Positions 18,301-49,200 of a stretch of DNA of 64,000 nt are shown here, piece after piece. Where the stretch lies: NCBI GenBank assembly GCA_035084275.1, contig CM068750.1:6696001-6760000 (forward strand), in the 5' to 3' direction. Below the pieces are notes generated by a model. That model did not search any database and was not told the origin of the DNA. It saw nothing but the letters and a program-made list of their open reading frames with translations. A program made the position numbers and the translations under genes. Source of the DNA: Hydrolagus colliei (lineage: Eukaryota). Positions within the stretch are counted from its first letter, which is position 1, and each line of letters begins with the position of its first letter.

Positions 18301-21300
18301 ATTGTACTGCAGCCAGTGTAAAAATTGCTCCAAAAGGTGCAGATCCTCTTGTTAATTTGGATGGTAAGTATTGAATTATTTGCTAAATGACAAGGATATT
18401 TACCCAGGGAGAGCTTATTTTAAGAGTAATTGGGTGGTTAGTCGCTTGGGCAAGTCTAGAGTAACTGAAGCTGCATACAGTGTGGTACAAAATCTTATTT
18501 TAAAATTTGCTGTAGGAAGTTTAACATTTATTGTAGCAACTCTTGCTTTGTTAATTCTGGTATAATCGACACAAAACTAGAAACTTAGTGTATTTTTTAA
18601 AAAGTGAGTTTTGCTGAAATTCGTTGTACAGTATTTACACATTGTATTATCTTAGCTGTATTGTCACAGCTAAATTTCTGAATTGTAAGAGAAGTAGTCT
18701 ACCTGAAGAGGGTGCTATGTGCAAACATCATTTGTACAACATTAGATTGTGCCTCATTCTGTCGTCTGTCTGTCTTTCGATTGTACATTTTTCAGTTGTG
18801 TTAGTGGGCTGATCAGTAAATGGAAGATTTTTTTCTTTTTTCTGTTCACCTACAAAGATTTTGAATTATTTCTCTTTTACAGCTAACAACCCTGACTTTA
18901 AAGCTGGTGTAATGGCATTAGCCAACCTTTTACAAATCCAGCGCCATGATGACTATATGGTAATGTTGAAGGTATGTATTGCCATTGTGGATATTATCCT
19001 GCGTGGCTTTCGTAATTTGAGTAAAACAGTTCAGATTACGTATCATTGCATGTTCCTACTGGGGAGGAATTTTAACAAAAGATGTATATTGACACTTTAT
19101 AATAATAATAATAATAATCCTTGCGTATTGCATAGCATTTTATCACATCTTGGAGACATCTGAAAGCACTTCACAGATCAATTGTAAAGTATAATTTGTG
19201 AAATTTCCTCAGATATACTTTCTAAGATACATGTCAATATATTGATCAGTATATGTTGTATGTAAATGGGTATATTTATATAATTATAAATGGTGCCGGT
19301 AGCTCAGTGGTTAAAACATTTGTCTTACAAGCGAGAGACCTGGGTTTGATTCCAGGCAGGGAAAAACCTTGGGCAAGTTTCCTTATTCCACACGCCTGAT
19401 AATAATTCCTCAAGAAAAACGATAACAAATCGGTCTTTCCAATCCACGACTGTTTGTGGGACACTGCTGTGCACAATTGGCTGCTGCGTTTGTCCATAAA
19501 TATAGAATCAATTCACTTTACTGAATTGTAAATTTACAATTTACTGAATTTACAGCAAAAAAAATTCTGTGAGGCACTTTAGAGCCATCTAGAAGACATG
19601 AGAAGCGCTGTACCAAATGCAAGGATTATTGTTAATTAAATTGCAAATTTTCTTTATTACTACTGCATCCATTTCTATCACTATCTACAAATTTATTGCA
19701 GTTAGAAATGTATTTTTGTGACTTTGAAGATAGATTGTAAGCCTTTCTAAAAGTGTGAGTATAGCTTTACTCTCACAGCCTGGAGGGTAAAATTCTCACC
19801 TAATGTAGCATTAACCCACACACATCAACAGGTCAGAGGTTCAGTTCCTGGTCTTTGCTGAGTTAGCTGATCTCAACCAGAATTGAGGATAGAGGCACTA
19901 CATTTGGCCTTCGCTCCCCTGGGCTTGGGAGGGGGGAAATCAGTCATGGTGTCCTGTGCCTTATTGCTAACCAGTGTGAACACTGCAAGAAGCAGCATGT
20001 GTCAGTGGCACTTGAAAATAAGGTGATGCTTTCTCTCTCCCTGTACAAAAAAAAACCTTTCTAAAACAAAAATAATAAAATTGCCAGTTTTCGTTCCTTA
20101 TGATTATGTTCATCCACTAACCAGAGTCACTACACTTTACAGAGTATCCAGTGAAACACTTTGGGACTCCCAATGCAAAAGGTGCTTTGGCTTCTGTCAT
20201 GAAAGAAATTGGTGCAACTGATTCCTTATTAATCCTAACTGTTATTAATTTTATGCAAATGGTAAGATGTTACTTTTGCCACTCACTACCCAGAACGTTC
20301 TTAGTTAGATTAGAAGTATACTTTGCAGCTGACCCGTCTATTCTCAAAAGAGATTTTCTTCTTTATTACCTTGACATCTTTTTAATTTGGTTCCAGGCAA
20401 TTCGTATTTTGGTACAAGAACGTTTAAGTCAAGAGGCCATTGCAAAGTCAAACCGGTCAAAGGAGGTAAACCATATTTCCAATACCTGTTCTGTACAAAG
20501 ATTCCAATTTTATTTTGTTTCAAGCTTTTTTGAGCATAATGACTACAATTAAACAGATACAGTGAATCTTGTTGGCTGAGTTCTGAAAGCTAAATGTTTT
20601 ATTGTTCCCAGAAATGGGAATATGTGTAAACATTTGTGTGTTTTCAAGGTTTTAAATATATAGTCGTCGCTTGACTGGCTTTTGGGACTAATAGTTTTTT
20701 CACCGTGGATGTTTTGATAAAACGGTGGTGTTTAAAATGTTCAATGTAATTCTTTACAACAAACAGTAGATATATATCATGTTATGTTTGTCAATGTCTT
20801 TATAGTTGCACATTTGTTTTTCAGGGTTTAACTGTGTCTTTAGATAAACATTATCTTGGCTTTGATACTGGAGGTAAGCAACCTTTTTCATCAGTGGGAT
20901 TGACCCCCTAATTATAGTTTGTGAATAATGGAGAAACTTGAATGGAGTAAAACACTCTCCCAGCCAGCTGTTACTGCTTGTTATAACACAATTAAGGGGT
21001 TCTGTGGTGTCAATCTGCAAGACAAGACTGAACTTCATGCAGTTATTGGAACGTTGAGATTGAGTTACAGCAAGCACTAAGAACAAGGCTTCATTTATTG
21101 AAGCCTTGAGATTAGGTTGTGCCATTGCACAATCTACTTGGGTGCGCAAGACTGAATACCTTTGATATGTTTAACCTTCATTTTTTCTGTTTCTATTAAG
21201 TTTAGCTATTCGTGGTTAAATTTGCTGATTAAAATGTGGGTCAAGTCTTGCCATCTATTATGTCAACTCTGTTTTGAAAGAGAGAGGATTGATGTAGGCA

Positions 21301-25209: not shown

Positions 25210-28200
25210 CTGCCAGAAGGGAGGGAAAATGTTATTCAGGAAATCATGCAGCTCTGTGATTAAAAGAGTGCACACCTAAACATTTTTGGACATCACCAAT
25301 TTAAATCAACATTTAACTTATTGCACTCAACAACATTTTTAGATGTCCGAAAGCATTTTTAGAGGATGACAAGTTACATGAAGCATCAACCCCGTGCTAT
25401 GTTGCAAAACGTTAGGGCTTTAGGAAAATAAAATGCGGCTTGTGCTGAGAAATCATGGCCTTGACGTACAATCATGAATGTTGGGATGTTGCTGGAAACA
25501 GTGCCTTTAGGCACAAGAATTGTGTCACTTTACTCTGTATAATCAGAGGCTACCTGGATAAAGTAACAAATTTAATTGTGTTCCACTGATAGCGCATTCT
25601 GGAGAGGTGGGAAGAAAGTGAAACTGGAGGCATAGCAATTTTTTTTTTTTAAATGACATAAATAAGATGGTATTTTCCATCAGGAGATTTTAAGGCACCT
25701 TACCATGTGGACAACTAGGATAGGCCACAGTTATTCCATACAGGTGCGATCGTTGATCTGGTAGGAACTCGTCAGTAGTACGGCCGTTAGCTTTATTTAC
25801 AACAATAACTCCATCTCTGCAAAGGAAGGAAAATTAGTGTCACGTGAGAACTGAGTTTACATTCAGTCATTTGTAGCTGACAGTGTACTCCGTGCCATTA
25901 ATACACAAAAATATTCAAAAAACAGGATTCAGATCAGAGATCATTACTGGAGGCATATTGAAAAATAATCTATAGATTTCAAGGAAATCTAAATCCAATA
26001 TATTTAGAGACATGTATTCCATTAGACCTATATTCAGCCTTTTAAAATGGTTCTCAAAAGCCCAAATGCATAAAAGTTAAATTATTGAATCTATAATATT
26101 CAATATCAATATCTAACAGTAAAATACTTCAATTTGATACGATGCTTTGTCATGGTAAAATGTCCCAACGGAGTCCCAATTTAGGAGTTATTTTAACTCT
26201 GAGTAAGTTTATGTAGGCAAACATAGCAGCTTTGTTAGCATCTATCCACAAACAACAATCTGTTGAATGACTGATTCAACTATTCTGATTAATATGCATA
26301 AGGCTAGAAAACAAGGTAACTCCCGGCTCTTTTTTGAAATATTATAATAATCCTTGCATTTGATATAGCGTTTTCATGCCTTCTAGATGTCTCAAAGTGC
26401 TTCACAGAATATACTGTAAAGTGAATTGACTGTATATTTATGGGCAAAACTCAGCAGTCAATTGTGCACAGCAGTGTCCCATAAACAGTCATGGATTGAG
26501 TGACCAATTATTATTTTTTCTTGAGGGATTGTTATCAGGCATGTGGAGTAAGGAAACTTTCCCAAGATTTCACTCTGCCAGGAATTTAACCAAGATTTCT
26601 CACAATACAGTAGAGCAATTGAATCTTTAATGTCCACTGGCAGGTGGTAATTTGGTTTGGCATACATTTCAATGAATAGCTCCATCAAAGTTTCATTCTT
26701 ACCTTCTCCAGTCTGTGTAGTAGAAGTGATTTGAATAGGCAACAATACTAAAGGGGTAATTTAGGCCAAGCTGTACCACACGTCTTCCTGTTCCATCTGA
26801 AAATATGCACTCCAGGTTTTTGGTTCCTTTTGATCCCAGTCCCCAATAAAACATATTAGAAGAGGTGTTAGTAATCTGGGACACACATACACAGGCACAC
26901 ACATCACATGCAGGATTGTTCACCCATGTTTATTCTTTAACCTTCAAAGTCTTCATGTTTAACTCAATTTAAATTCCATCACAATACCTACCAGTTTTGA
27001 TGATTTTTGACAACTATAGATTTTGTTTTAAAAATCCTTATCTCATGAAACGTACCAGCATCAGCCCAACACAGCTGTAAGGAGAAGGGGTCAAAAGTCA
27101 ATCCATTGGGCAATCCAATGTCATCTTTAACCAAGACCCTTCTATTAGTTCCATCTATGTAAGACATCTCAATTTTAGGAGCTTCGCGATTCCAGTCTGT
27201 CCAGTAAAGGTTGCTGGAGGGAAAGCAGAATAGGGTAAAAATTAAAACAATGTTCCATATCTAATCTGAAGTCAACATAGCCTGTCATTTAGCTTTTACA
27301 GAGCAGCCCATTATCTTTTGAGGTGATCTTAAAAGGAAACATTCTCGAGCCCCGGGCTTATTTCAATTCTGGTGGAACCTGGTGGCTTTGGAGTGCATTC
27401 TACCCAAAACAATTTAGCGCAATGTGAATTTCCCTCAGCCTTTTTAACAATGCAAATACTTTAGATCAACCATAAAGTCTGGTACCAACATCTGTACAAG
27501 ATCTGCAATAGCACTTAATTTCAATTGGTGTCATATGTTGAGAAAATCACACTGTTCATTTGCCAACAACTAAAACTCCATAATTGTACCATTGACTTAT
27601 GTGAAAACCACATTTTCTGGGGGAAGAAAACAACTGTATACAATCTTCTATTTGGCAGAACTCTTTTGAGGAGAAATTAAAACATGCATGTCAACACACC
27701 CACTGAGAGAATCCACCACTATTGCTCTGGGGTTCACCAAATTGGTATCAAAGAGAACCCGCCGATGAGAGCCGTCCACCCCTGCAACTTCTATTTTATC
27801 TGATCCACTGTCAGTCCAGAACATGCGTCTGCGAAGGTAGTCTATGGTCAGCCCTTCAGGACTAGTCAGTCCTAAAGCAGAAAGAATACAAGATGAGAAA
27901 AAGCCATTTAGCTAATGCAGTGCTTGGAGAAGCTACCTCGGTGAGTGGCTCCATACAGGTGCAAGTTGTTCTTGAATCAATCATATCCTTCCAGTATATT
28001 GATTCTGACATGGTGATAGCTGATTGCATTTGGAATATTTTACAATAGTTTTGATTCCTTTATTCTGGTTCAAAGATTATAAACCATTACCAAAGTTTTT
28101 TTGGATATGGTTCTAAACTTGCTTTTTGTTTCCTGTTTGTATCCTCTGGTCCTATGCACTTGGCTGATTTTGAAAAATATTCTGGATTTATTTCTTCTGT

Positions 28201-31200
28201 ACAATTGCAAATATTGTGCTTCGCTAAATCCAGCTGCCCCTTAAATGGCCTCTTTGCAGATGAGGTTTCTCTAATCTTTCTCCATCATTCATTCCTTTTA
28301 ACTTAGTTAGTTACTGTTTCTCAAACTTTTCTAATGTTCTTCTGGTATGGGGGCAAAAGCTAAACACAGCATTCTAGGTGTTATCTAACCAGTGCATTCT
28401 AAAAGCTTTAGCGTAACTAGAAGTACAAAGAGGAGATATCAGTCAGTCACTCACAGTACACCCTGCAATTTAGAGCAAATGGTATTTGGCCTCGCAGCTG
28501 CAATTTAGGTGCCAATTGATCTTTCCTGAGAAACTTTAGAATTAGAAGCTCCACTGGTGCCTTTACCCATTAGACCATAAAGGCATGAGAAGGTCATAGG
28601 TTTCATTTCCAATTTGTGCTGAACTCACTGATCTCAGTTTGAGTAGACGTTCGGCTGCTACAAATGGTGTCAGCACAACAGGTCTAAGGAATTAAAACAT
28701 CAGCCATGGTTCCCACACTTGATTTCTATATAGAAGCCCCTGTTGGATGGAACGGCTGTATGGATAAGCTTGGGCTCACTGTGATATCCAACTCCCTCCC
28801 CCACAGTCAAACAGCCTACAGACATTCATTCTCAATGCTCATAGATACATATTGCCCTCTGGGGTGAAGTTCCGAAAGGCACTTATGCCAGTTGGGAAGA
28901 TACCTCAGTAGAAGGAAAGATAAACACCCTCAGGGAAGGAGGACAGGAGGGGGAATATTGGAGGAGAAAGTAGCTATTTAATGAATGGTGGCAATAATCC
29001 TTGCATTACTCTGACTGAACTTTATATTCCAGTACTGTACTTAATTCACGCTACTGCCTTTGGGGTAACACACAGATATATCTGTAGGCTAGACTTATGC
29101 ACCCAAAAGATCTGTATTGCTCAATGTTTCAATAATGGGTTCAATACCGCATTCAAAATGGGTGCACTGACTGATTATTTAACTATGGGAGGCATCACAG
29201 AGGAACCAATCCTTTCCTCACTCAACATTTATACATATGGAAGATGGTGTCGCTTCGTAGGTCACTGGAGATCAATGGTGGCTGGAAGCACTGGCTATCA
29301 GCACAAACCAGGGATCTATCCTATGGCATTGCTGATCTCCACATCTCAGGATCCCACCATTTACAGAATATACTGTAAAATATAGTGACAGCATATTTTA
29401 TGGGTGAAATGTGGCAGCCAAAATTTATATGACGTATAATAATGTACATTTTTTTAAACAAAATGTTTACAACAGATTTTTTAAAAAAACAAAAGAGTTC
29501 AAATGATTTGGATTGATGTAAAAGCACACATTTCTGAAAAGAAATTCTAAAAGCAATTGTTATTTCAACTTACCTGAATTAATCACAATCTCTGGCTCGG
29601 CGCCAGTTTCCAAACTAATTCGGTTAATGGTCCGGCCAGCGACATCAGTCCAGTATACCATCTTTTCCCGACAGTCATAATCGATTCCAATAACAATGGA
29701 ACCCTTGGAAGAGGAAAGAAAGACCCAGGAGAAAAATATTAATCATTCAGCACAGCTCTAAGAAGTTCCCACAACAGAATCCAATGTGAGAAGCTTGTAG
29801 ATTTGTCTAACTGCCAGAGAACTTATCATTTATTTATAGGATTGAAGTTACTGACTTGTTTGAACAGACTTGCATAATTTACAATTTGCTTAAACTACCT
29901 GTCCCTTTGGACACATTTCCCAAATCTCCACATATAAAGGTAATGTGCTAGATCACATAGTAAATAATTCATCACAGCTGTTGGCAAAAACAAAATTAGA
30001 TCACTGTAGAGATAAGGGTTTATGGTGCTAATAAGGAGAAGAAAATTGTTTTTGAGGGGAAACAAAACATGCAAAAATTGAGTTGCCTTCAAATCAATGG
30101 TTTCTATGCAAGTGGTACACTTAAGCTGGTTCACAGAATATAGTATTACACCAGTTTTATGCATAGACCAAATGTGGCAATGATTTAGTGAGTGTTTAGA
30201 AAAAAGCTCTGTTGCCAATTTGTCTGTGTGAATGTGTGATCACGTTCACAACATCTGCAGTTGCATTCGATTCGTTCGTAGGGCCAAGTGAATGTGCTCA
30301 TTTTCCATTCTCAGCTGGACTAATCGTCACACAGCTTTTCACTGTAACCAAGAAACCATGGCACTTCCTTTGTGGTTACAATGGTTTTCACCTCTGGACA
30401 GATCTTGCACTGATCGGGTCTGGTGAACTCGGGTCAAGTCTGTGCTTGATTTGGCATGATTTCAACTTTGAGCCAATTGCATATGTGTTGAATAAATGTC
30501 CTTGCCCTACCTTCACCCCCCCACTCCCACCACCCCCCCCCACCACCACCCCTTTTCCCAAGTGCTAAACAGTTTTGGGGTATCCCAGAGGAGAAAGTTA
30601 GAAAAGAAGGTACATTACATGGAGAGCTAACAGGCTCTTGGCTCCTTCTTTGTTTAACTGAGTACCATTCAGGGGAAGGTACCCAATGTGCTGTCCCTGA
30701 GCATATAAAAGGAAGGTACCAGTAGATGGAGGGGTCACAAGAGGTGATGGAGTGGACCGTACAGTGGGAGGTGCAACAGTTGGTATACCTGGCAAATTCA
30801 ACAAAAGAAATATGAAGCACATTAGAAGCACATTTCACCTACAAAATACACAGTTAATTCAGTTTACAGTATATTTTGCGAAGTACATTGTAAATATCTC
30901 AGCGTCGTGCTAAGGCACTTTATCAAATGCAAGGATTATTATTATTACAGATATATTCCTTATGAGCAATGGAAGGTTACATAATTGCACTTTCACCAAA
31001 AGGTAGAACTAATAAAAGTAATACTCACTAAATATCATAAGACTGTAAGACGTGAAATAATATCGATAAGATGTGAAAAGTGCTATATCAAATGCAAGGA
31101 ATATTATTATGACACAGCATTGAAAGACAGAGCTATTTAACAAGAAATGATTGGGATAGTGGGTAGGAAGTGAAATTAGGTACTAAGTGTTATGGAGTGG

Positions 31201-34200
31201 AAGATGTGATTCTCACCAGCTGTATCAATGAAGGATTATATAAATTTACTGCTTGATTTTTTTTAAAAAAGCAATGAATTGTTGGTTAAACCAAGACATC
31301 TACAAAATGACATATTCTGCTGTCTCTGAGATATTCTGGGATTGGGGGCACTTAATCACGGCCTTGAGTGGGCATAAAGCTTTAGATCTGTTTAGATGTA
31401 CACATATATTCATACTCATGGCATTTGTCTAACCAGTGAGGGCAAGAGAACTATTCCCATTGACATTGTTTTACACTGACATGCACATCCCACCCTGTCC
31501 AAATTCATTCATTAAAGTGAATAGTATCAAATTATCAGAGGTGATCCCCCCCATTTAAATACCTGTAATATGAACTGCTATCAGAGTCATATCAAAAGCT
31601 CCAGCCACCTCCCATTCGCAGCTCTGACCTAACCAATCATTTCCAATCATTTGTTTCTTACTAGTAATTTTGGCAGATTGGTGCCCCCTCTCCTCATACA
31701 TTTCCCACGCTTGGCATTTAGCGGATTTATTTTCTTCTTCAAGTTTCTCTTAAATAAAAAACAATTTTATTCACTACCAGAATGAAAAAAAAGGTTCTCA
31801 CATGCTGGAAGAATGCCAGTCTGGGTTCCAGTTCCTTGAATTTCTCGACCATCTTTATCCACACACCAACACACACGGTCTCCACGACACTGCATGGGTC
31901 TAAAGTTCCCATAATCGTCACACTGGGGGATGTACTGATCTGCTGATGTCCTGCTATTTTCTGACATCTCTCTCCATCGTTCACACAGAGTCTGTGGGCT
32001 TGTTGTAGGTTCTGAAATCCATTTTAATGTGCCACGTTGAATAGAATTTCCTCACTTTGGTTTACAATATTGCTTAATGAGATATATGAACTAATAAAAT
32101 ATAGTTTATAGCTCCAATTTCAACGGCAGAACTAATAGAGAATAAGGGGAGCAGTTTATGAGTTAGGAGGTGATTTATTAGTCAAAGAAATTAAAGTGGT
32201 TTTAATAGGAAACTCAATGGAACATGGGTGCTTGTTTAACTTCAGCGATTGTATGATTTATAAAGATAACACTCATTCGAGTTTTATTGTACATCCAACA
32301 TTCAATCCATAATCAATCTATATCGTTAGATAAGGCATGTAAATGGTTTGGGATTTCTGTATTCTAACTAAACTGAACTATTCATTCAATTAACTGAACT
32401 ATAAATTATGTGCAGCAAATACTTGTATATAAATCTTTTTTATAAAGGATAAAATCACAGATTTTGATTTTGATTTGTAAGACCAGCTGATTCAAGGAAA
32501 CCATTCCCTTTGTCCATGGTCAAGTCGATACAGGACTTTGCATTTTCACTGCCCTACATTTAAAAAAGATTTGTTTCCCTTTCTTGGCACAGAAGCAGGA
32601 AGATCAGTAAGAGAATAATGCCGTACTCCAGGTTAAAAATCATTCCTTCTCAAAAAGGAAACCATTGTGACTGACCTGGAAGACCACACCGTGGTTGATC
32701 AGCTCCGGGGAAGGTTCTGGTTCCAGGGATTTCCTCTCCCCTTTCATTCACACACCAGCACTGGCCAATACTGCTGTGACATTGAAGTGGCCTGAATTTG
32801 CCTTCATCATCACACTCAGGAGCAAAGAAACCAACAGAAGGTCGAGCTCCATATGAACTGTATTCTACATTCACTCTGTCTCGCTGGTCCTCACATGCAG
32901 TCTTTGGACGTCTTGTTGCTGCAAATCAAAGGCAAGTTTGACAGCTTCTCTATAACACTTTTACAAAACAATGTACATGGTTGAAACAGCTTTGGACTCA
33001 GCCCAACCACACGAGTCTCCACCCATTGCATTACTCTATCTCATATCCTTCTATTCGACTCTCTCTCATCTGAAGGTCTAGCTTCCTCTTCATTGCATCT
33101 ATAATAATAATTTTTAAGAGTCCTTGCATTTGTGTAGTGCTTTAACATGTTATCACGGTGTCTCAAAGCGCTTCATAGGAGTTATTGTGAATTGGTGCAT
33201 CTGTGTATCAATTTCATACCAAAGACAATGATAAATTACAGGAAAGAAGGTTTAATTTCACACATATATACTTCTGGAATATGTGAATACAGTATTTTAC
33301 AAATAGAGTGTTATAATATGTTTCCAGGAAAATTAGTTTAACCGGTACAAACTGTGGGAAACGAATGTCAAAATGCCAATATTCAGCTACAATTTATAAA
33401 AGTTTACTGTAAATAATTTTTTGTAAAGATTTTTTTGGACAACTGATTTTGGAAGAAGTATTTTTTTTTAAAGTGTAATCCAGACAAACATGTTTGAATT
33501 TATTTGAAAACGACGCTAATTTCTGGTCATGTTTCTATGACAAAATATGCCCTGAAAATATTTTAAAACATTCCTTCCATCTTTTAATTCTCTGTGGTAT
33601 TTCACTCTGTATCAGTTTACATTCCAGCTGTGTTTAAAATCAGCATTTCTCTGCATGGACAATTTAAAGCTGTCTTTCTTCTCAAAAACTCATCCTATTT
33701 GCCACAAACATCGTGTGGAATATCAGACATAATAAACCGGCAGTTAACTTTACTAACAGTTTACTAACAGTCCCAAACAGATTACTATAAAAATGACATA
33801 TTATCTATTCAACTCATCAGTCTTATGCTTTTCTCCACCCTATTACAGTACATACAAAAAATCTTGATTCATCTATGGGACATTACCTCCTAGACCCTGT
33901 GTTAAATCCTTGTTCTGTCAGATTCAAATCAAATGTTGGTATTCAATGGAAATCTATGCTTTGGCGCAAAGCTAAGCTTTGACTGTCCTGGCAGCTCAGA
34001 CTGTGATTGACTTTAACCAGAAAAACACTTGAATTAGAAATCTCTGGGTCCCACGAGTCTGCACCCCATCAAACAAGATGTTTTCTTCATGGCATTACAG
34101 GGGCAGATCGGATCCAAAGTGACACTCAGGTCCATGGATCTGAAATCTACATTAATTTAAACATGGGTTCGATTTCCAGCTCATCATCATCCATAGATTT

Positions 34201-37200
34201 GTTTGAACGTATGAACCAGTCGAGGACAGCTGCAAAGGTTCCTGCATTCAAATGGGTTATTCATCAGCATTTGCCAAACAAAAAATATTGATTGACCTAA
34301 CGGCCCACACTGTTGTGGAACAGATCCAGACGGTGATTTGCTTCCAGGAATTTCCCGGCCCCAAACATCAACACACTAGCACTGGTCTATGCTGCTGTGA
34401 CATTGCAGTGGAACGTATTTGCCTTCGTCATCACATTGGGCCACATAGCTCCCGAATTGTGGCCAAGATCCACGTGGGCCAAACTCCGCTAGCGCACTGT
34501 CTCGCTGCATCTCACAAGCTGTCTTGGGACGTTCAATTGGTGCTGATCAAATGAAAACAAATTGGTTTTTCGAAACTATTGCAAAACAAAAGCACTGAGG
34601 GGCATTCTGACTTCACAAACCATCAGTTTTCCATCAGTCAAATTGCTCGCTTTAGGTCATATTAATACATCTTCTTACACTCTTGTGTGAATACAACAAG
34701 AAAAGTAATCAGGGATCTCCAGCTGGCCATACTTTATACATAAAAAGTCTCGGAACAATTTGAACTGCTCCATTATTATACCAGTCTTGATCACCATCCC
34801 AAATTAAAACTACATTAACTGACCTGGCATCTCACAGTGTAGCTGATCCGTTCCAGGTGGCTTTCTGGTTCCAGGAATTTCCCGTCCCCATTCGTCCACA
34901 CACCAGCACTGGTTCCCAATGGTGTGGCACTGCATAGGCCTGTATTTGCCATGTTCATCACACTGGGGAATGTGGATGGTGAAATGGGGTCTATCTCCAC
35001 GAGAGCTGTACTCGGCTTGCAATCTTTCCCGCTGATGCTCACAAGCAGTCTTTTCACGGTCAGGAATAACTGAGCAAATGAAAAGGAAATGTAGACAGTT
35101 TTACAAATGACAGCAGAATAAAAACAATGGAGACATTTTTTGACACCTTGGCTTAAGCTCAACTTTTCCACCCATTCACATGGAGGGCAATGGAACTTGC
35201 AAAGGTCAAGGATACAAATGTCGAGGCCCTCCTCCTAAAATGTGATCAATAACTTGAGTGAAAAATATAAGAAAATTGCCTAGTCCCTAATATTGGTTTC
35301 CCTCAACTAATTTGCATGACACTTGCCACACAGAACGATCAAAAAGGTAGACAATGTTACCTACCTTGGCTACCTTACCTTATTTCAATCTGCATTGAAT
35401 GGCCCTGTCAAATAGTTCAGATTGTCTTACACATTTGCCACTTTAAGATCACTGCAAGACACATAATGCCCATCAGTTCCTCTGCCTAAGAAACTCATAA
35501 AAGGAAAAAATAAAGGAATATTACTACTGTATAACTAAATGAAAGTGGTTGGTGAAAACCGCTGATTGCTAATGCTTGATCTAAAGAAGACAAAGTGAAC
35601 AATTATACAATGAAGGCAGGGCATGTGATGCACACAAAATTTGAAATGTGTTAAAGCAGCCATGTTCCATTGATGTTATGTGTAACAGTTTCCGGTACTT
35701 GACTTTAAGGGTAATGAATATTCAATTAACACAACACTGACTGACCTGGGAGCCCACACTGTGGAGCATTACTTCCATGTGATGTTTTTGTCCCATCAAT
35801 CTCCCGTCCCCAGGCATCCACACACCAACACTGGCCGACACTCTGGTGGCACTGCCGTGGAGTGAATTTTCCTTCTTCATCACATTGTGGGACATAACGT
35901 CCAGGGTGTGGTCTCGGTCCACGTGGACTGAACCCAGTTTGCATTCGGTCTCGCTCCTGCTCACATTTGGTCTTTGGACGGCCTGCTGATCATCCATTTC
36001 GCATTAAACACTGTCTGTGCATTTGATATTACACCACTTCAGATCAAATACATCCATAAAGCATTATTACAGTGTTAAGAATCCTTGCGTTCAATACAGA
36101 AAATGACTACATCACCCAAAAGTCTTAAAGCAATACACTGCAAAGTGTAGGGGCTGTGTATACCAGAAATATTTAAATCGAATACACATCTAATTAAGAA
36201 GTCAAATGTCCACATTTACACAATAACTACATTTTATTTAGAAAATATTCTTTATAGGGGGTTAACACTGCAAAAGCACATTGGAATTTTTCAAATCACA
36301 TTAAATCCAGATAAAATATGTGAGTCACTTAATATAAGAAAAAGCAGGGAATGCAGATGCAGCATTCATGGTTGGAACGTTAGATTACTTTCATCTGTCA
36401 AATAAGATTACCAGGATTAAAGATAATTTGTTCAATTTTTGAAGGGTTCTATAATCAAGATTGCTTTGTTTTTGAAGCTATTGCAGAGACGTTAGTATAA
36501 CATTTAAAAATGTATTGCTAACTGGAAAGAACTTCCATTATTATAAGTCTTTATTACATTGAAACAAACTTTTCAAGTCACTTCGCAAGTAATTAAGCAA
36601 TGTCAAAATTGTTTGGTCATTAAAGAAATGAGCCATTTGAGCCAGTAAAGACACACTGACAAACAAGAGTTGAACGACCAATTTATCTGTGGATTATTGG
36701 CCAGAATTCCAGAAAGTACTCCCTTCTCTTCAACTCATGTCATAAGATCATTAATATAGGAGAATAGGAAGTGTGGGGGCTTGTATAGAGTTTAATCACC
36801 AGCATGGATTATTTGAGTCAGTTTCCATCCTCTATCATTCCATGCAATTTGGAGTGATTTGTCCGAACAGGGAAATGGGATCACAGTTTGTCTCATCCAA
36901 AAAACAGCCAAGCACTCCCCCAGCATCACAACAAAATGTCAGCGTTCAGACTAAGAGTTATGTTCTGACATGAAGTTTGAAACCACAACTTTCAGTGGGC
37001 GGAGGAGTTGCCACGCTGGGATTTCTGCAGCTGGACAGCTCAGGAGTCACAAGCACAGGGCTGGTCAGTGAACGGCCAACATATTAAACTAAATTCAATC
37101 GCTTCCAGGCCACATTCTCAGAGCAGTTTCAGGAGAAACCAACTCAACTTGGCAAGTCTTCTCGAGATCAACAATAAGATAAAGAAATTAGAATCTCTTC

Positions 37201-40200
37201 TAATTTGTGGGGGTTTTTTAAATTAAAAATCGTATAGTAAAATATATCCATTGCAGATTAAATGTACATACATGTCACAGAAGGTGCTCCACTCAACCTT
37301 TTTTGAATCCGATAACACAAAGCATTCCAGGAAATCCCACGGTTCATTTACAGGAAACCGAGCTACTATAAACATTATGTTCTGGATTCTTACCAGGCCT
37401 GCACTGTAAACCATCTCCTTCATAGCCAGGGTTACATTGACAGACGAAGGAGCCTGGGATATTGTAGCAAGTAGCAGCTGGGTGACATCTGCCTTCAGTA
37501 CATTTATCAACAACTGTAATGAAGACAGCAGAGGCACATAGTCAAATTTTGTTTAACCTCTCATTTTCCTCTCCTCCCAATAAAGGAGTGATTTGTGCTG
37601 GAATGCAGTTTCATGAGTGAAAGCGGTAGGGCTCTGCAGCTCAATCAAGTGGCCATTCACTACATGAACCTTTGGACATTCAGCAATGTTAGGCATCATC
37701 ACAGTGGAACCCCTACCTTGTCCTTAAGAATATTCCAGCACAGAAGGAAGCCATTTGGCCCATCTTGCCTGTGCCAATTCACTTTCGAGCGGGTGGGAGG
37801 GGAGGCAATGGATAGCAATTTTCAAAGGTCTATGTTACAATGGTTTGTCAATGATTGTGCCTCTATTCTTCAAGGAATAAATCTGGGATAGGGGGCTGAT
37901 TGGATGAATACATTTTACACTGTTGGTCTCTGAGAATCTTCAAACTGGTCTTTATTCATGTGTTACTGCCATTTCACATTCCCAAAGGAGATCATTCCTG
38001 GTGTTATCAGGAGTCATTTTTGCTTAGCTTCGAAACCTGCATTACTATTTCCTCACTGTGACTGACTGTGGACCCTTTTTTCTAATAACAACAACTTTGA
38101 TTTATATAGCGCCCTCCATGCCGGACAGTGTCTCAGAGCAGTTCTGCATGCACTGCAGGTAAACATCACAACTCAATATACTAATTAGTGGGAACTCAAA
38201 TAAAAGGGTTAAAAGAGCGATTTCAATATCCATTTCACTGAGAAGTTAACGGACACTTCCCCCCCGTATAACAGAATCTATTTACATTCTGAATTTAACA
38301 GGATTTTGGGGGTTGGAATTACTTCAGCTGTTCTTTAATGTCAAGTCAGCATTGATACTCCAGTGAAAAGATGTTTAGGTTCACGCTGATTTCTTCAAAC
38401 TAAAAGGTTTGGGATTAATCAACACGAGGGAGCCAGTTCTTTCCATGTTTGTTGCATCTCTAACAGCTGTAACTAATTTAGGCAAAATACACATCTTTAA
38501 TCCTCAAAGGACTAAAGGTTTTTAGATTGGGGAGGAGGGTAAAAGATCTTCTGTTACATTTGCTTTCCACAATGACAACAAGCTGTAACATAATGGTGAT
38601 TACAGGGCACATTTTGGGATAAGGCTCAAACATGTCCTTGGAGGGATATACGATGAAACAATTCATGTGCAACCTTTTATCCTGAGGTCACAAATAAGAT
38701 CACGGTTAGACACAATGCCAACAAATCCCTGCCTGTATCCCTTCCTGTAGGCAGTGAGTTGTCAAACTCAACCAAGCCTCCAAAGCAAAGAAGCTTTTCC
38801 TCTGGGGAGCTCATCTGTAAAATGCGGTAACAATCTGTGAAAGCTATTTTCAGTCAATTTGCTACCATCATTATGTCATAGAAAGACAGCCAGACAATGG
38901 CTATCATGTTGGGGATGGGATCGTTGGCCAGATTGCAAGGCAGGAGTTCTAAAATACCTGAAAAAAGCATGCAGCTTTTGAAACAAAAAGTAAAGTCGGA
39001 TTTCAAATGGTGAATTTCAGGGCTACTCAATTTGGTCAGACCTTTGGAGCAGGAAAGTTTGTTGACATTAGACTGATGCTGGTTTAATAATAATACTGCA
39101 TAATGCTTGCATTTGATGTAGCGCCTTATCGTATCGTCAAGACTCGAAACCCTTTGCAGGATATACTGTAAAGTGCACTGTATGGATAAATCACAACAGC
39201 TAAATGTGTACAGGAAAAGCTTTAACAGTGAGGTTCTTAATTGGTTAGACACACAATAGAATGAGCCCAAACGGAAAGCAAGTCACTTGGAAGACTTACG
39301 AATACACGTGCGTCCGTCCTCTGCAAGCTTGTAGCCGTGGTGACACTCGCATCTGTACAATCCGGGGAGATTGACACACCCAGCATGGCTTCCGCATCTA
39401 GGGTAAACACCATCAGCACATTCATCAATGTCTGAGAAGGAAACAAGAATCTGGTTACCATAGAATTCCCTCTGGAAGCGAGTAAGTCAACAGGTCGGCA
39501 AGTTTGCAAGTCAGAGGCAAGACCTACAAAGCCGTGTAATGTAATGGTCCAGTTGATCAACACAGCTTTAAATACTTAGAAAGCACAATTTGGACGGAGC
39601 AGGTCCAAACTTTTTTTTCTTTTTGAAGAATGTCTTGGCTCATTCCGAACCGCAATAAGCATTCTAATTACCCGTTTGTCGTACAGTACTTAAATGAGTT
39701 TCAAAATGGTCCAATTTGTGCGACCAACGAACTGGCAAAATAAATGAATCACATCAGGAATAGATGGAAGACTGGACGATTGTTGATTCATCATAAAGGA
39801 TCTGAAAAATAGCTTCATAGTTAGGGTATGTACCAAGATGTTACATTACTGTATACCATAGCAATAAAATGTAATGCACAGCAATCTACCAGGAGTGATG
39901 CAGTGCAAAAGATTGTGTCACACAAACATCAGAGGTGTAAAATAACTGGGGTATAACACTGTTGGGAATAGGTGTAAACATGTTTTTTGCTTGGTAAAGA
40001 GTGGACATTGTTGGCAGTGGACAAATACTAACCCTTGCATTTTCTTTGATTCACTGATTCTAACAACTAATATAGCTGGAAATGAGAAGTCCTATTCTCC
40101 TCTACTTTCTCATTATTTACAATTTCTTTGAATATTGCTACTTCTATGGCTTGTTTTCTTGTCTAAACTCCTTGCCAACCTGCCCGGCCCCTCCGTTCAG

Positions 40201-43200
40201 CGGGCTCTGGTCTGCTCCATGACTTGCGCCCGACCCGCCCGGGCTTTCAGTCTCTCTGCCCCCACATTCCAGAACTCCATTCCACTGTCCCTGCGCCTCG
40301 CTTCCTGCCTTGCCTTCTTCAAGGCCGATCTCAAAACCCTCCTTTTCGATGATGCCTTCCGCCACCCTCCTAACTCTCTCCCTCCCCCACGCTCGGGCCC
40401 CAATCCCTGACTGTTCAGTGCCTTGGGACGTCCTCCGGACATGAAAGGCACTCTGTAGATATAATTTTGTTGTTGTTGTACAGGTTCCAATGGGTTATTT
40501 GTGTAAGCCCATAGTTGTTTTCCTGGGGAAGGGGCAGGTAAACTGAATCTTTAAATCTCGCTGGCGTATCTCCTCACCAACTCAGAGCAAAAATGCTGCA
40601 GTATTCACCCACCAGTGCAAACTTTTCCATCTCCTTGGTATCCCTCTGCACATCTACAAAGGTAGGCTCGTTCAGCTTCAGGGGAACATTGAGCATTGAC
40701 ATCACAATCATGACTTCCATCATAACACGGATTCACAGGTTCAGGCTCCAAATGATCTGTCAATGACACACAGAAAAGAATTACATTTTAAATGTTTTTC
40801 CTGAAGAGGAAATATAAGATTTAAGAAAGCGGATTTAATTCTATAAAACCATGTGTATGATTATCATAAAACAAAGGGAATATCTGACAGAACAGGATAC
40901 TGATATCATTCAACCAAAAACCTGCAGAGCCAGTAAAACAGGCAGATTATAGTCAATGATCTGGAACTGATTAAAGAAGCTGTAGAGTATGTTATACTGG
41001 CAGGAATAACGGCAACAAAGAACATTCAGTTGCCATAGACAAAATCAACCTTTTCAGCCTCCATACCCTGTGGCGAAACGGCAGTCCATTCTGAGACTCT
41101 TAAGCATTCATGGCCTTGCTCCCTCATATCTCTCCAACCTGCTGTCCCCCTATGAGTCTGCCTGCCTACTCCATTCAGTGGGCTCCAGTCTGCTCCATGT
41201 CCCCCATCCGACCCGCCCTACCCGCGGTGGACAGGCTTTCAGCCTCCCTGTCTCTTCACGCTGGAACTCCATTCCACAGTTCCTTCGCCTCGCTTCCTCC
41301 CTCGCCTGCTGCAAGGCCAGTCTCAAGCCCCTCCTCTTTGATCATGCCTTCTGCTGCCCCCCTATCTCTCTGCTTCCCTTCACCCCTAACCTTCCCCTTG
41401 CTCGGGTCCCAACCCCTCACTGTTCAGCACCTTGGGACACCCCCCTGATGTGAAAGGTGCTCTATAAATGTACGGTTATGGTTGTTATAGTTGTTGTTAT
41501 GTGTCCATGAACCACAGAAGAATAACCATTCCTGGAAATTAATCATGAAACTCCAGCAGCACAACTATTCTCAGGTGAGGCTAAGTCTCCAAAATGTTTC
41601 CCCTCTAGGGAGATGTCCTCACTCACAGCTGGACACATCTTTGAGGTTTGTTTGTAATCATAATAAACGGCAGTTTTAAATATGCCACTCTCCTGATCAT
41701 ACAGGGTTCCATGTTTTGGACACTTCTCTATGACTAACAGCAATTAAATTGTAAATACAGTACAACAATCCGCACACTTGAGTTTCTTTTAGTTTGTTTA
41801 GAAAAAGAAAACACTGTAGAAATGCTTTATGCAGTAGAATGAAAGATGTCAATTGCAAAACTACAAGTGGTGGAAATTTTCTGTGAAAGAGATGAACAGT
41901 AACTCTTTGCTAAATAGCTCACTACCGAGAAATATAGTAATTAGTAAAAATGCAAAGGAAGTGGGTTATAAAAAGCAATTATAACCCACTTCTTTATGGT
42001 ACAAATTTTCAGTTTGTGTTCCTGTACCAAGCACTTAACTCTTTTTCCTACACAACAGTCTTCAGTGGAAAAGCCTTGTGCTTTTTGGAAGCTCATTACC
42101 ATTCTCATGATCTGTTTTACCCAGACACTTTATAGCATCCATTAAATCCTTTGACTTCCTGACCTCAGGCCTGTAGCCAATTTATTCACTTACTCCCAGT
42201 AAAAGAGCTTTGTTGAGATCAGACTTGTATGGAGTCTCTTTCTTTCCCCCTTCAAAATGACCTTGGTGTTAGGTCATTTTTCCCAATGCTCTCCACCCCC
42301 CCCCCCCCCCCACCACCCCACCCACCACACACACACACCCCGCCGCCTTTATGAATGTCCGTTTATTGCTCAACATTTGTGCAAATACCTTCTATACATG
42401 AAGGAACAAAAGGAAGGCAGGGGGTGGAAAGCTTGCAAACAGTGTTACTGGTGAGAAGAAATTAAATGCATTGTTCAAGGTTCTGTTGAACAATGCTTCT
42501 GTCTCAGCAGGTGCAAGTAGCTGTGTTGTTCAACTTGCAATTCCTTGCATTGACTGCTGACTCCTCAATTCCAACAGCATGGGACCATATTGGGTTTTTT
42601 TTAAATGTCAACTGCACATTTATTACTGTCTATCCAGAGCCTCATCATTCAAAGTACACAATTGCATTACATAAAATTTCCTAGCAGTATTCCAGAGTAG
42701 ATCGGTAGTAAAAGAAATGAAGGAGAATAATGAGTTATTTACCTTCGACAGAGCCAATCTCATTAGTCATTGCATATCTAACTGCTTTCTCCTTCTGGTC
42801 ATATAACACAAAAACACGAGCAACATTCAGTTGTTGAGTGGTTGTGAAAGTCCTGGATGTGCGTTCACAGTCATGGAATGTGATATTCTGTCTCAAATCA
42901 TATCTGAGTGTCTGTGTCTCACCATTACTGGAAAGAACAGAATACTCTCTGTTGGCTGTAGATGTCAAAACTGTGAAGAAGAAGTTTGCAGAAATGAGAA
43001 GCATCTGACAACCATTTTAAGGATTAAAGAAAGTTACAAATCAAACAAAAACAATGGCAAACACATTATCAACTGCCGTCTATGTTTTGTGTTTTTATTT
43101 GGGTGTCATTAGCAATATGTCAGCCTCTCTGCTGAGTTCTTAAACACAGGCGTATAATGTAAAATTGGTTTATTTTTTATTGAAAACAATCATCAGAATA

Positions 43201-46200
43201 TTTCTGCCCAGATCGACCACGTAATTCAACAAAGACAATTGTCCTCCCATACCTGAGTTGGAGCGATGGTAGACATCCCTATATGGCTGGATCTGAACTG
43301 AAGCACCATGGGGTATAACAGGGAGGTGGCCCTCAATCTCTGTGATAACACTCAGGTAGCTCTGTGTATCCAGACCCTGAGCAACTTGTATTATATTTAA
43401 CCTCTCGTTGCCTGGATAGAATGTGATGTCGACATTCCGGATAAATTTAGCACCTACAAAACACAAATAGCACCACGCAAGTGACGTATTATAATTAAAC
43501 AAGAGTGAATTTCCATTGGTCAATGTACTCTGGAACTCTATCCCACAGCCCCTTCACCTCGCTTCCTCCCTCGCCTTCTTCAAGGACAGTCTCAAGACTC
43601 TCCTTATCGATCATGCCTTCTGCCGCCCACCCACCTCTTTTCCTCCCCTCCCCCCCACCCTGCCCCCACCCCATGCTTGGGTCCCGACTTCTGATTATTC
43701 AGCTCCTTGGGACGTCCTCCCGACGTGAAAGGCGCTCTATAAATGCAATTTTGTTGTTGTTGTCAATAAAGTTACTATTGTTCTTAGGGTGTGCTTGTAA
43801 TGGGAAAATAATTTATAACTATAAATAGTACACTCTGATCAAAAAGGAACCACCCTTTGGTCTCTTTCTATAATGAATTAGTTCCTCTCAGCCAGGTTGT
43901 TGGCGATTATCATTATAAGGATAACCCCACATTGTGGTTGATAAGCTTACTGACCAGCAGAAATGTGTACTAGATTAGTTACCTTTGTTTAAAAAAAACT
44001 TCCTCTCTTTCCTCCTGTACCACTGGCTGGTACAACAGAGTAGTATCATGTGTATTTACCAGGATCCTTTACCATCCTTGAGTGGTCTTTCTTCAAGCGT
44101 GGAAAGGATGGTTCAATGTGTAATTCAACCATGCCTACCACATAGCCAACACACATCCTGTTCTCACCTGACAATGGATGCACTTATCTCTGTCTTATCA
44201 GTGCAACTCCTATAGCATGGGACACAATAACCATTGGTTGAGTTTGCAATTAAAAAAATCTCTAATTCTTTTCAGTTAAGATGCAAATATAGAGAAGACC
44301 ACTGCTGGAGGTTGTAGAACATTTTGTAAAATTTTTACTTATGATAGTACAGAATATACACACACACACACACATATGTGCAAGTTCACATATCTATCTG
44401 TGTGTGTCACTCCTTTTGCTTTCCTGACTCGAACCAATCATTCAAATCCTCACTAACTCTTTTCAGACACTGCATTTTAAACTATCAGTCCAGACATCCC
44501 AGTACACAAACACCCCATGACTCTATCATGCTGGGTTTCAGTCTGCAATCCATTCAATGGCGCATTTTGATGAAGTGAAAATTTTTATTTGACACTGTTT
44601 CCCCTTTGTTTTTGCCACCCTTTGATGTCTGTAAATAGTTTTGAAATCCTCCCCCTGGGTACCTGCTCTGCTCCTACACATCCCAATATCCAAAAGCATT
44701 TGCACTTCCAAAAAGGGGTTTATTGAATAGTGGTCAGCAACAGGAATCCTGGTTAATTATCTCCCTTCACTTTTCAAAGGCATTGAAAACCTCCTCTGGA
44801 AACCCGAGTGCGAGACTAACTTTGCACATAGTATTATACTGAGCCACAGTATATTGACCCAACCGAACAAGTACATGAAAAATATGGAGTCCAGGAGCAA
44901 CACAATCAAAGGAAAAGAGTTTTCTTCCCAATGTTGGTGTTCAGCACTTTGGTTACTGTACCTTTTTTGAAAAGAACATATTTTTCTTTGCTACCTTTCA
45001 GAGCCATGACAAGTTCCAAGAACACAACTTAGTAAGGAGAATATAACGGAATAAGAGGCTGGGCAGCAAATAGGCAAATAGGAATATGAGCTTCCATACT
45101 AATTCAATACTGTTGATTCATCTATAAACCTCACCAACAACATCTTTAGAATGGACAAAACCCCACTGAAAATGGGGTTTGTTTTGAACTTTTTGTTGTG
45201 TTTCAGGCAAGCTGGACCACTTATTCAAATAGTTTCACTCAGAGAGTAAGCCCTGGAGACAACAATAATAATAATTATTATTATTAATCCTTGCATTTGA
45301 TATAGTGCTTTTAATATCTTCTAGATGTCTCAAAGTGCTTCACGGAATATACTGTAAAATGAATTGACAAAATGTTTTGTGTGCAGCAGTGTCCCACAAA
45401 CAGTTGTAGAAAAGTAGAGAATTTATGGGTAAAATATGGCAGCCAATTGCACATAGCAATGTCGTACACAATGATTCGAACACAGATCTCATGCTTGTAA
45501 GGCGAGTGCTCTAATCACTGAGCTACAGGACTCCACAAAGAGTGGAGCCAATATAAAGAGTGGTACACCAAGGATATTATCCCTCTCACTCAGATGGCTG
45601 TGAAAGTGGACTGAACTTGTCCTGTAATAGCTATAGTGTCAGGAAATCTTCTGTGTTCACAAGCTCTTGCAAAAGGAAATGGATCCAATAAAGGAAGTGC
45701 TACACTCATTGAATTTGGCTTTCCACAAACGCATTCAATAAAAACAAGATTGAACCTATTACATTAGTTACTACAAAGTGATGAACTGGGTGCAGGATGT
45801 TTTCTGGCATTGGTTTAATAATTCTATGACACTATCCACACACCTATCAATGGTGAAAGTCTGAAATCCACATTTTATAAACTAAATGATATAAACTAAT
45901 GCCCTCCAAAGTAACAGATTTTTTTCAGAATATCTACAAGCAATTCCTAGCCAGTACCTACTTTTTTTTATTCCAAAGTATCTAATCTGTTTCCCAATCA
46001 GAAATGAAAACTTCCATAATCTAATGCAGGGATTTCCGTATCTAAAAAATTGCTAAGGATTTTCAATATAAATTAAGCAGTGTAAATGATCTACCTGTGA
46101 TCCTGAAACCATTTTTGAAGCCTGGTTGCTGCAGTGCAAAGAGCCATCCAAAAAGACCTCCAATCACTGACAGCGGTTGCAGTGCCCAACCAACTGACTC

Positions 46201-49200
46201 GGGGATATGACTGATCGTCGTATAGGCTCGCCCGTCACTTACAACCACATAGGCATGCATGTCAGCATTGCGGATCTCCACAGGTGAGCGGCTGGCTCCA
46301 ACCACAATTTTTACATTCACTTTTCCATTCACACGCTGTGTGGCACCTGCAGAGAGTTTAATCAAAGAATTATTTCAACGTATGGCTGCCAATTGTTAAG
46401 GAGTTATTAGGTACAAAGAAACATCAAAACGGAGTTGCACAGTGTAACAAAAGATTTTAATGACCTTCTACCAGACATTGCCGCCCATTTCCATAGTAAC
46501 CGGAATGACAGTGGCAGCAGAATCCACTGGAGTAATCTGCACAGTAGGCATATTGGGAACATTGACCCTGGTTTCTTTCACAGGTTTCTCGAGGATCGGT
46601 ACTGTAAGTGAAAACTGAAACACAAATAATGCCTTGGTCAGTTTGATTTTTGGTCAGTGGATAGTCTGACACATGTCATGCTTAAACATATCCTTTGCAA
46701 GCGTCAGGGACCATCATCAATGGACATCAAACCCTGATGCCCAAACCACTTTGCAAAACAAAATAAAATGTTAACAGTAAATTAGTTCCTCGTATTCTCC
46801 ACAATCACTATCGAAACCTTTTTATTAAAACCATTCTTCTCCACGTTTCATTATTTTCCAAACACTACAATGACAATGATGTTTGTACAAAATTACATTT
46901 ATAGAGTGCCTTTCTGATCGGGAGGACATCCCAAGTCCTGCAGTTTGGTTGCTGTTATAAATTGGCTAAACGCATATCATGATTTTAATTGATATACACA
47001 CAACAACGACACAATCACTTAAGATTAGCCTGAAAGTTCTGATGTTGGAAATACAAACAAGAATTTCAGTATACTTGTGCGCTAGTCTGTGTTTTCAACA
47101 AACAGCAGAGAATTATACAGGGCACAATTTTAGGAACCTCTTTTCTGGCCATAGTACATTAAATAACTTAATCACAACTTTGTTTTTCAAATAAATTTTT
47201 CTATGCACTTACCACCTGTGCCCAATTCCTCTTCTTCTTCCACGGAGACCACACGTCTATCAGGTGCGGCTGGTAATGGATTTCCAAGCAAAGATTCAGA
47301 CTCTGGGTGTCTCTCTCGGTGTGTTTCAGGGTGTCTCTCATGGTGTGTTGCCGCAGGGTTTGGGTATCTTTCACTGTGTGTTTCTGGGTGTCTCTCTCGA
47401 TGTGTTTCATGGTGTCTCTCTCTGTGTGTTTCACGGTGTCTCTCTCTGTGTGTTTCAGGGAGTCTCTCTCTATGTGTTTCAGGGAGTCTCTCTCGGTGTG
47501 TTTCAGGGAGTCTCTCTCGGTGTGTTTCAGGGAGTCTCTCTCGGTGTGTTTCAGGGAGTCTCTCTCGGTGTGTTTCAGGGAGTCTCTCTCGGTGTGTTTC
47601 AGGGAGTCTCTCTCGGTGTGTTTCAGGGAGTCTCTCTCGGTGTGTTTCAGAGAGTCTCTCTCGGTGTGTTTCAGAGAGTCTCTCTCGGTGTGTTTCAGAG
47701 AGTTTCTCTCGGTGTGTTTCAGGGTATCTTTCACGGTGTGTTGCCCCAGGATTGGGGTATGATTGCCTGGCATCAGCTTCTCCATACCGCCGAGGGTTTG
47801 ATGAAGGATACGATGGCAAACCCCAGGCCTCGGGATAGGAAGACACCACACCTGCCTCTGGGTAGCCTTCAGGGTGTGGTGGAATAATGCCTGCCTCTGG
47901 ATATGGTGGTTGCTCTGGAATACCATGGACCCTTTCCCGGGGATCTGTGGGTGCTAAAGGTGAGAAATCTAACGTTTCATCGTCTTCTTCATCAAATCCT
48001 TCATCGTAATCATCAGCCTCGGAGTATTCAGATACAGGTAAATAAGGTTTAACTGGGCCATTTAAGGTGCTGTCTAATGTCACAATAGCCTCTCGCGAAG
48101 GTTTTCCTCCGGCTTGTGCTTGTATTACATTGTTGAACTGTGAAGCTCCACCAATATGGAAAATCCATACTCCTTGAGTACCTGAATTGCCCATCCTTCA
48201 GGATCAAAAAACAACAAGATTAGAGTCTATGTTACTGTGTACATGTCTGAATGATATGCATTATATATGTATACTATATATATTCTTTACAGTTATAAAT
48301 CCTGAAATGTTTTATTGGTTGGCTTCCAACATTGATTTCCTGACCTGCCATTTAAAGGAATTTTACTTTAAACAGAGGGACATTATTAATTGTTAAGGCC
48401 ATCACAAGCTTCCCCATCTGTGAAGGTTACAGAGCCCTCAGTCTTATGGATCTTTAAAACTGGGTATTCATGGAGATGTAGAGACCAAGGAGGTTAAATA
48501 TTTTGCATTTCTTGCTGCATGCAAGAGTTGGTTGGCCACATTCATATAGAAAGAAATGCCAAGCAAATGGTTCAAATTTCAATAAACAAAATCTGAGTCA
48601 ATGGCTCACAATTTGATTATTTGCTGCTCAATAATACAAGAGGTGACACTGAGCAAAGCTGAGATCAAAAGAAGGGGCTGTATGTTGCACACAGGACACA
48701 GCTTGAGATATCATTCAGATGATTTAAAGTACATCATAGCCAACACCCTCTTCTGAATCATGCAAACCCTTCATACTCACTGATAAAGATTCTTCACACT
48801 TTGCTCATTGCTTGTTAGACTATAATAAGGCTCATCTCTCTTCCACTGTATGTACTCAGTTTCTCCTCTGCTGAAGCCCACCCGAGCAGGTAGTTCTATT
48901 TGAACGTTGTAGGATTCCTTAGGTCGAGTGCCAAAGAACTGCAGCCCATCTTCTGGGTATAGAAAGATTGCATAGGTGTTTGACTCATCAAATGCCAACA
49001 CTGCCTGAAAGGTATTGAACTAGAAGAGAGAAATATGCATAAATCCCATTTAGTTTACACGAGACTGGCAACCTTAAGACATCTCAGAAAAGTGAATCCC
49101 TTTAAATACACACCCGAAATAGTAAACTGCTCAATGCACATGTGGAACCAGTATTGAATCAAAAAGTACTGTCCTATTGAGTAACAATTGCACAGTAACT

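Follow-up and report, generated by a model that had tools for sequence, protein, structure and literature searches.

Thyroglobulin type-1 exons at the NID2 locus

The DNA analysed here is a stretch of 64,000 nucleotides (the window) from the chimaera Hydrolagus colliei (contig CM068750.1, positions 6,696,001 to 6,760,000), which carries the gene for nidogen-2, NID2, with a tandem array of exons for thyroglobulin type-1 (TY) modules. Coordinates are positions in this 64-kb window, and the host gene and all of the TY exons lie on its minus strand. The approximate coding span of the gene, located by tblastn with NID2 of Callorhinchus milii, is 25699..51232, and its exons are collinear with the C. 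milii protein through residue 1914 of 1915. A first homolog search gave six matches, all of them C. milii NID2. The domain order is NIDO, link, G2F, EGFs, TY array and YWTD (G3), with no EGF past G3, and the array ends with a TY module of a second class that is absent from NID1; both features identify the gene as NID2.

The array comprises six intervals between the last EGF exon (37394..37513, which ends in G, phase 1) and the first exon on the G3 side (30619..30788, a Pro/Thr linker and the start of G3). They lie where the original prediction had placed them: A at 35746..35985, B at 34824..35069, C at 34297..34542, D at 33988..34229, E at 32676..32918 and F at 31802..32011. AG precedes each interval, and the donors of A to E (gtcagt in A, B and E, gtcaat in C, gacagt in D) agree with those first described; that of F is gtgaga. 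At exon A a second in-frame AG lies 3 nt inward (35982-35985), giving an alternative acceptor at 35982; RefSeq isoforms of C. milii use three such exon A starts, and in the window the outermost seems to have been lost, leaving the inner two. Exons A, B, C, E and F are 240, 246, 246, 243 and 210 nt long, all multiples of three and in phase 1-1, as had been claimed for the readable copies; D has 242 nt. Against PF00086 (curated cut-off 20.6 bits) A, B, C, E and F were scored, with 78.5 bits for A, 80.1 for B, 77.9 for E, 65.3 for F and 35.2 for C up to its stop. A, B and E each contain six Cys and the CWCV core, F contains five Cys and a sixth split over the exon junction, and C has six Cys with a stop codon in place of Trp. 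The structure predicted for E (score on the predicted local distance difference test, pLDDT, 80), with a helix at 7-20 and strands at 44-47 and 52-56, is the helix plus beta-hairpin of the TY fold, and its top Foldseek matches are TY proteins. The six copies originally counted are thus four open ones (A, B, E and F), one broken by a stop (C) and one that has decayed (D).

The stop in C is an in-frame TAG at 34377-34375, 78 nt upstream of the exon end. It replaces the Trp of the CWC motif, a column with a conservation of 1.00 across 957 other modules. Exon C departs at 7 of 27 conserved columns, one of the changes being Gly to Asp where conservation is 99%, compared with four departures in its C. 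milii orthologue; E has none. The donor of C lacks the +5 G present in A, B and E, and this, together with the seven departures, suggests real decay. Faster evolution of C was considered as proof of an old pseudo-exon and rejected; its derived changes number 9 against 3 in C. milii (p 0.15), which matches the gene-wide background of 24:10.

Exon D was missed by blastn and tblastn. An nhmmer match covers its last 93 nt or so (E 2.5e-4), and its score exceeds those of all 911 background windows (z 5.9). The signal resides in the 3' half, at about 34110-33980 (z 4.9, none of 250 background windows higher), the 5' half giving z 0.6 with 67 of 250 higher, and the donor GT has been lost. D is a real but faint relic, whose 5' boundary, 67 nt below C, is unsure because the 5' half is without significance. 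It scores somewhat nearer to B and C than to E, and a protein search, with no match at E 1, gave it no class. Intronic relics elsewhere, among them one suspected at about 33130-32960, were sought and rejected, as no window in 33921-33075 rose above z 2.2.

The copies are 66-76% identical in nucleotide sequence, with homology confined to the exons and short flanks and none in the introns, and exon C occurs once in the genome assembly. The array is therefore old and not an assembly duplication, the alternative that had been raised at the outset. The synonymous divergence (dS) among copies is 0.8-1.2, and the paralogue ratio of non-synonymous to synonymous divergence (dN/dS) is 0.30-0.42.

Orthologues and module number in other vertebrates

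NID2 of C. milii (XP_007886366.1; UniProt A0A4W3IYC2) has seven TY modules. In what follows, values of the Shimodaira-Hasegawa-like approximate likelihood ratio test (SH-aLRT) come from a quick tree of 119 rows, and bootstrap values and approximately unbiased (AU) tests from a careful tree of 37 rows. A, B and C pair with C. milii modules 1, 2 and 3 and E with modules 4-6 (bootstrap 100 each), and F pairs with module 7 (SH-aLRT 100). The modules A, B, C, E and F stand in the same order in both species and are 78-87% identical; compared as protein, C. milii has an intact C and three modules of E type, of which 5 and 6 share 95% protein identity, whereas the window has a stopped C, one E and the relic D. 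A clade uniting A, B, C and E of the window was rejected (AU p 1e-72), and the array is therefore older than the split from C. milii. This contradicts the lineage-specific expansion originally proposed, and supports neither an assembly artefact nor a recent species-specific duplication; only the tandem layout speaks for these last two, which orthology had already refuted and which, given the dS values, the C. milii orthologues and the AU result, keep next to no probability. The common descent of A to E that had been proposed is supported, as is the birth and death of copies.

The TY exons differ from those of C. milii by 13-22% and the other exons by 7% (93% identity over 853 sites), a two- to threefold higher rate of divergence for the TY exons. 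Identity to the orthologue is 78% for C, 78.5% for A and 80% for B. The exon pieces of G3 are still conserved between the two species. On the quick tree the chimaera modules group with the first, second and penultimate modules of sharks (23 rows, SH-aLRT 97), and the careful tree leaves the deep chondrichthyan order open. One clade (SH-aLRT 99) holds F, the second TY of the budgerigar and, for each fish tested, its last module. F had been likened to the mammalian second TY; its membership of the second-TY class holds, on a comparison made with a bird rather than a mammal. Exon F of holocephalans lacks about six residues after the first helix and one in loop 2, all kept by sharks, paddlefish, teleosts and the bird, and it lies on a long branch (0.41) common to the window and C. 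milii; these losses may affect hemicentin-1 binding.

The textbook nidogen-2 has two TY modules. A search with the TY region of C. milii was used to survey fishes; the best 120 of 1520 matches were listed, and one nidogen record per species was kept, giving 71 records after further isoforms and eight non-nidogen TY-repeat proteins had been set aside. The list is ranked by TY score, and so overstates the typical array length and is uninformative on frequency. Among the matches listed, 18 sharks and rays have 11-26 TY modules, with a median of 19, and 52 teleosts 8-22, with a median of 13; one further seahorse isoform has 23. A G2 exon, used as an independent query (150 of 275 matches listed, 20 named), gave, among the matches listed, three TY modules in paddlefish, two each in Hucho, two cyprinid records and the budgerigar, and one each in lamprey and hagfish. 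Each of five NID1 records scored also has one. The number in fish NID2 thus spans 2-26 among the matches listed. A homolog search with G3, aimed at NID2 of gar, coelacanth and tetrapods, brought up mainly LRP proteins. NID2 of gar, bichir, coelacanth, lungfish, amphibians and mammals lies outside this count, and the two-TY state is represented by one bird, one salmonid and two cyprinid records, together with the literature on human and mouse. In these two-TY proteins, which lack the expansion, the second module corresponds to F and the first to the class of A-E; the single TY of lamprey, hagfish and NID1 contrasts with the whole array of the window.

Several first-class modules followed by one terminal second-class module, between the EGFs and G3, are found in zebrafish Nid2a, in shark and ray NID2 and in teleost nid2a, as in the window. 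Exactly one second-class module is present, in terminal position, in 70 of the 71 records, the exception being Silurus, which was classed by score only. Compared with the window, the shark, ray and teleost arrays are mostly longer (8-26 among the matches listed) and more homogenised, with internal copies that mostly cluster by species or family. The mean within-array identity is 0.53 in the window and 0.62-0.95 in the 71 records, making the window's array the least homogenised, and it is the shortest chondrichthyan one among the matches listed. Within this fish-wide pattern the locus is an ordinary and short example, and multi-TY fish NID2 is already in RefSeq, in UniProt and in print, where zebrafish Nid2a is said to have six TY modules instead of two (Zhang et al., bioRxiv 2021.11.24.469833, legend of Fig. 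S3). The wide annotation of multi-TY NID2, which the original prediction had named as a finding that would count against it, is therefore a fact; that this is also the ancestral gnathostome state does not follow, since the first-class modules of chondrichthyans and those of ray-finned fishes fall into clades of their own. The trees are compatible both with independent expansion and with homogenisation of an array of greater age. With 8-26 TY modules the array can double the length of many shark, ray and teleost database proteins, and comparing these offers a natural way to ask whether basement membranes depend on the length of the rod or on the valency of TY.

Among cyprinids a divergent two-TY nidogen-2 record (likely nid2b; P0329, P0323) is found beside long-array nid2a records (P0107, P0118). 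As the kinds are compared across species, this is probably, rather than certainly, a second case of amplification in one teleost duplicate only. Some proteins of smelt and knifefish are almost wholly TY repeats (28 and 16, respectively), and anuran saxiphilin-like proteins contain 12-19 (P0034, P0073, P0083, P0092, P0104 for these groups); these proteins use related modules, which the tree does not place relative to the first TY of NID2. Elsewhere in the H. colliei assembly a single TY exon, likely that of NID1, lies at L005:1504-1719 (G000:C3), with no further copy in its 3.2-kb locus. Six other single TY exons in the assembly appear to resemble testican, SMOC or invariant-chain types.

Exon phase and the fate of the copies

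Each domain of the array is encoded by one symmetric exon, so that every skip is in frame. All six Cys of a module are encoded within each of A, B, C and E, whose last nucleotide is G, and any junction among these exons is in frame and encodes Ala, Val, Glu or Gly. F ends in T, and the TGT codon for its sixth Cys is formed only with the next exon (30619..30788), which supplies the GT. An F-F junction would read TAA, and F placed before another TY exon would give Ser or Phe. In 18 of 19 chondrichthyans F is preceded by Glu, and if the exon phase of the window applies, a duplicated F in those 18 would also read a stop. Only the self-contained first-TY exon would therefore be duplicable without harm, F being locked by its split Cys codon, and many first-class modules with one terminal module of the F class would be expected across fishes. 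To judge from the junctions, the split codon is the likely reason for an expansion confined to the first class.

The duplication itself was probably by unequal crossing-over, by analogy with the zinc-finger exon of teleost piccolo-b. That domain, too, is encoded by one exon, and its amplification, 8-16 times, occurred in repeated and independent events, for which unequal crossover has been proposed as the mechanism (PMC3484663). NID2 resembles it in having a symmetric single-exon domain, a copy number of 2-26 and copies that cluster by lineage. Piccolo-b differs in being intracellular and amplified in teleosts only, whereas the NID2 arrays are also found in cartilaginous fishes and carry the split-codon lock on the terminal exon. 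NID2 would be a second example of this type of exon amplification; the 2012 paper, in the text available, knew of no parallel among teleost duplicates (PMC3484663). The split Cys codon is a new mechanistic point and a simple rule for which exon can be amplified. In the portions of the literature that were accessible, no survey of nidogen TY number, of fish arrays or of the split-codon rule was found other than the remark in the zebrafish figure legend, and a prior description is possible; the accessible text of PMC10972974 and of a preprint on thyroglobulin evolution (10.1101/2025.06.18.660348) does not mention fish TY arrays.

The chimaera array is old, and likely shrinking rather than newly expanding. 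Internal copies in sharks, rays and teleosts stay alike, while those of the window have drifted to a nucleotide identity of about 67-72% and lie among non-homologous introns. Neighbouring copies in the window are not near-identical units able to mispair now, and the loss of homology between introns makes mispairing unlikely; the copies probably no longer recombine, and would be lost by point mutation, D long ago and C recently. A stop codon ahead of exon junctions leads, by the usual rule, to nonsense-mediated decay. Many exon junctions lie downstream of the stop in C, so inclusion of this exon would be expected to trigger such decay. Since G3 is still conserved, a full-length protein would still be under selection, and a productive mRNA would skip C and D and read EGF-A-B-E-F-G3, with 313 amino acids of TY.

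Possible roles of the array

We consider it probable, if far from secure, that the TY array is a loosely constrained spacer of variable length. It is supported by the fast divergence of the TY exons, the copy number of 2-26 and two observations in zebrafish. TY modules plus G3 are reported to bind hemicentin-1, and a zebrafish fragment in which G3 is preceded by just the final two of six TY modules bound it at 30 nM; in addition, mouse Nid2 mRNA, encoding two TY modules, rescued the fin fold of nid2a morphants (bioRxiv 2021.11.24.469833, available text). The G3-proximal modules would likely go on contributing to the binding of hemicentin-1, as they are known to do, whereas core basement-membrane function could probably dispense with the extra ones. 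Several points weigh against this reading. The rescue concerns one tissue and injected mRNA, in the text as available. Of the 957 modules, 836 depart at no more than one of the 27 conserved columns, and such conservation, with the recurrence of long arrays in many lineages, fits a positive function as well as it fits tolerance. A holocephalan-only origin of A-E, with an AU p of 0.23, is not rejected, and the support for E with C. milii modules 5-6 is only 96/75, so that gain of E in C. milii and loss in the window are not distinguished. The skipping of C is inferred from its sequence, and its stop could be an error, a polymorphism or a change of very recent date, because neither its divergence nor the 9:3 ratio exceeds that of A, B or the gene as a whole.

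If the TAG were a consensus error or a rare allele, the working array would have five modules (A, B, C, E and F). In C the six Cys, the frame and the length are kept and the acceptor is normal (pyrimidine fraction 0.71), and the distance of C from its orthologue is not excessive. The excess of departures over that orthologue, with the Gly to Asp change, the donor without +5 G and an assembly without a second haplotype copy all argue the other way, and we regard an error or rare allele as unlikely. Extra modules might instead raise the valency with which hemicentin-1, or some other ligand in the matrix, is bound as basement membranes are linked. Domain swaps have shown a contribution of TY to hemicentin-1 affinity (bioRxiv 2021.11.24.469833, in the part available), but the sufficiency of the last two TY modules plus G3 and the rescue by a two-TY protein in the same text make such a gain in valency very unlikely.

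Cathepsin inhibition is a rival of another kind. Modules of the first class would be inhibitors of cysteine cathepsins (thyropins, MEROPS I31), and the array a multivalent protease shield of the basement membrane; we think this improbable. The best matches of E in the PDB, by sequence and by fold, are the TY repeats of saxiphilin (65 bits; Foldseek E 5e-7), then the p41 invariant-chain fragment, p41 Ii (52 bits; E 3.3e-5), with the same fold and a similar loop 2. Saxiphilin is reported to inhibit cathepsins L and B and papain at nanomolar concentrations (PMC6584486), and the number of its TY modules, 2-16 overall, rises to 15-16 in toads (bioRxiv 2022.06.09.495489), each source being cited from its available text. 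The commonest loop-2 strings in 954 first-class modules, HGSTGH (399) and HGSTGY (110), are those of toad saxiphilin among the matches listed, and that of E, HSSIGQ, is close to the saxiphilin type. The same loop type, however, occurs in NID1, and the TY of rabbit NID1 shares HGSTGY, so the loop is not diagnostic. Loop 2 of the window departs further in A (HQSVGQ) and B (HTIGNQ), B lacking both conserved Gly. For saxiphilin and p41 inhibition is shown, but nidogen did not inhibit papain and was cleaved in its TY region (PMC3429489, available part), and a review describes an inhibitory role of nidogen TY as undemonstrated (PMC7863939, likewise). If the modules did inhibit cathepsins, the old question of the role of nidogen TY would be settled.

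Regulated cassette splicing could set the distance between G2 and G3 by tissue, with the array selected for tuning and C able to act as a poison exon. The symmetric exons would allow it. Predicted RefSeq isoforms of six other fishes vary in internal TY modules with the first and last kept, and the acceptor of A is purine-rich, with a pyrimidine fraction of 0.29 against 0.59-1.00 in 15 other NID2 acceptors; the latter is a weak hint, as the F acceptor is also poor (0.47). Against tuning, all five C. milii RefSeq isoforms retain all seven TY modules, and 15 of 26 compared isoforms hold modules absent from the reference isoform, as mis-mapping of reads from near-identical repeats would give; predicted isoforms are weak evidence of splicing. 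In an AlphaFold model of the zebrafish protein the extra TY modules loop out and the rod is not lengthened (bioRxiv 2021.11.24.469833, available text). Such tuning strikes us as rather unlikely, and the literature, so far as its available text goes, leans against either inhibition or splice tuning being required. In a broader scheme, which we consider improbable, the first TY exon of NID2 would be a hotspot where amplification recurs in jawed fishes (2-26 copies, with separate expansions in cartilaginous and ray-finned lineages), building on the basement membrane a saxiphilin-like, multivalent cathepsin-inhibitor arm with a valency set by splicing; at the chimaera locus this arm would be in the course of dismantling, with C as a poison exon lowering NID2 output. 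Four predicted isoforms of Amblyraja (P0021, P0023, P0032 and P0033) have equal numbers of TY modules and differ in three-module blocks; the differences could reflect mutually exclusive splicing or an annotation artefact.

Other features of the gene and its surroundings

Within the link exon of NID2 (47214-48195), a coding 24-bp repeat on the minus strand at 47376-47742 runs for 15.3 copies with 94% matches and encodes a charged unit of eight residues. At the same place C. milii NID2 has a different repeat, of 11 residues, and none was seen in the four elasmobranch and two teleost records checked. This is a second, apparently holocephalan, repeat expansion in NID2. On the plus strand, at 18813-19160, lies an exon similar to RTRAF (PF10036, 24.5 bits against a cut-off of 24.6, E 3e-5), tail to tail with NID2. 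We take this order to be that of the human locus.

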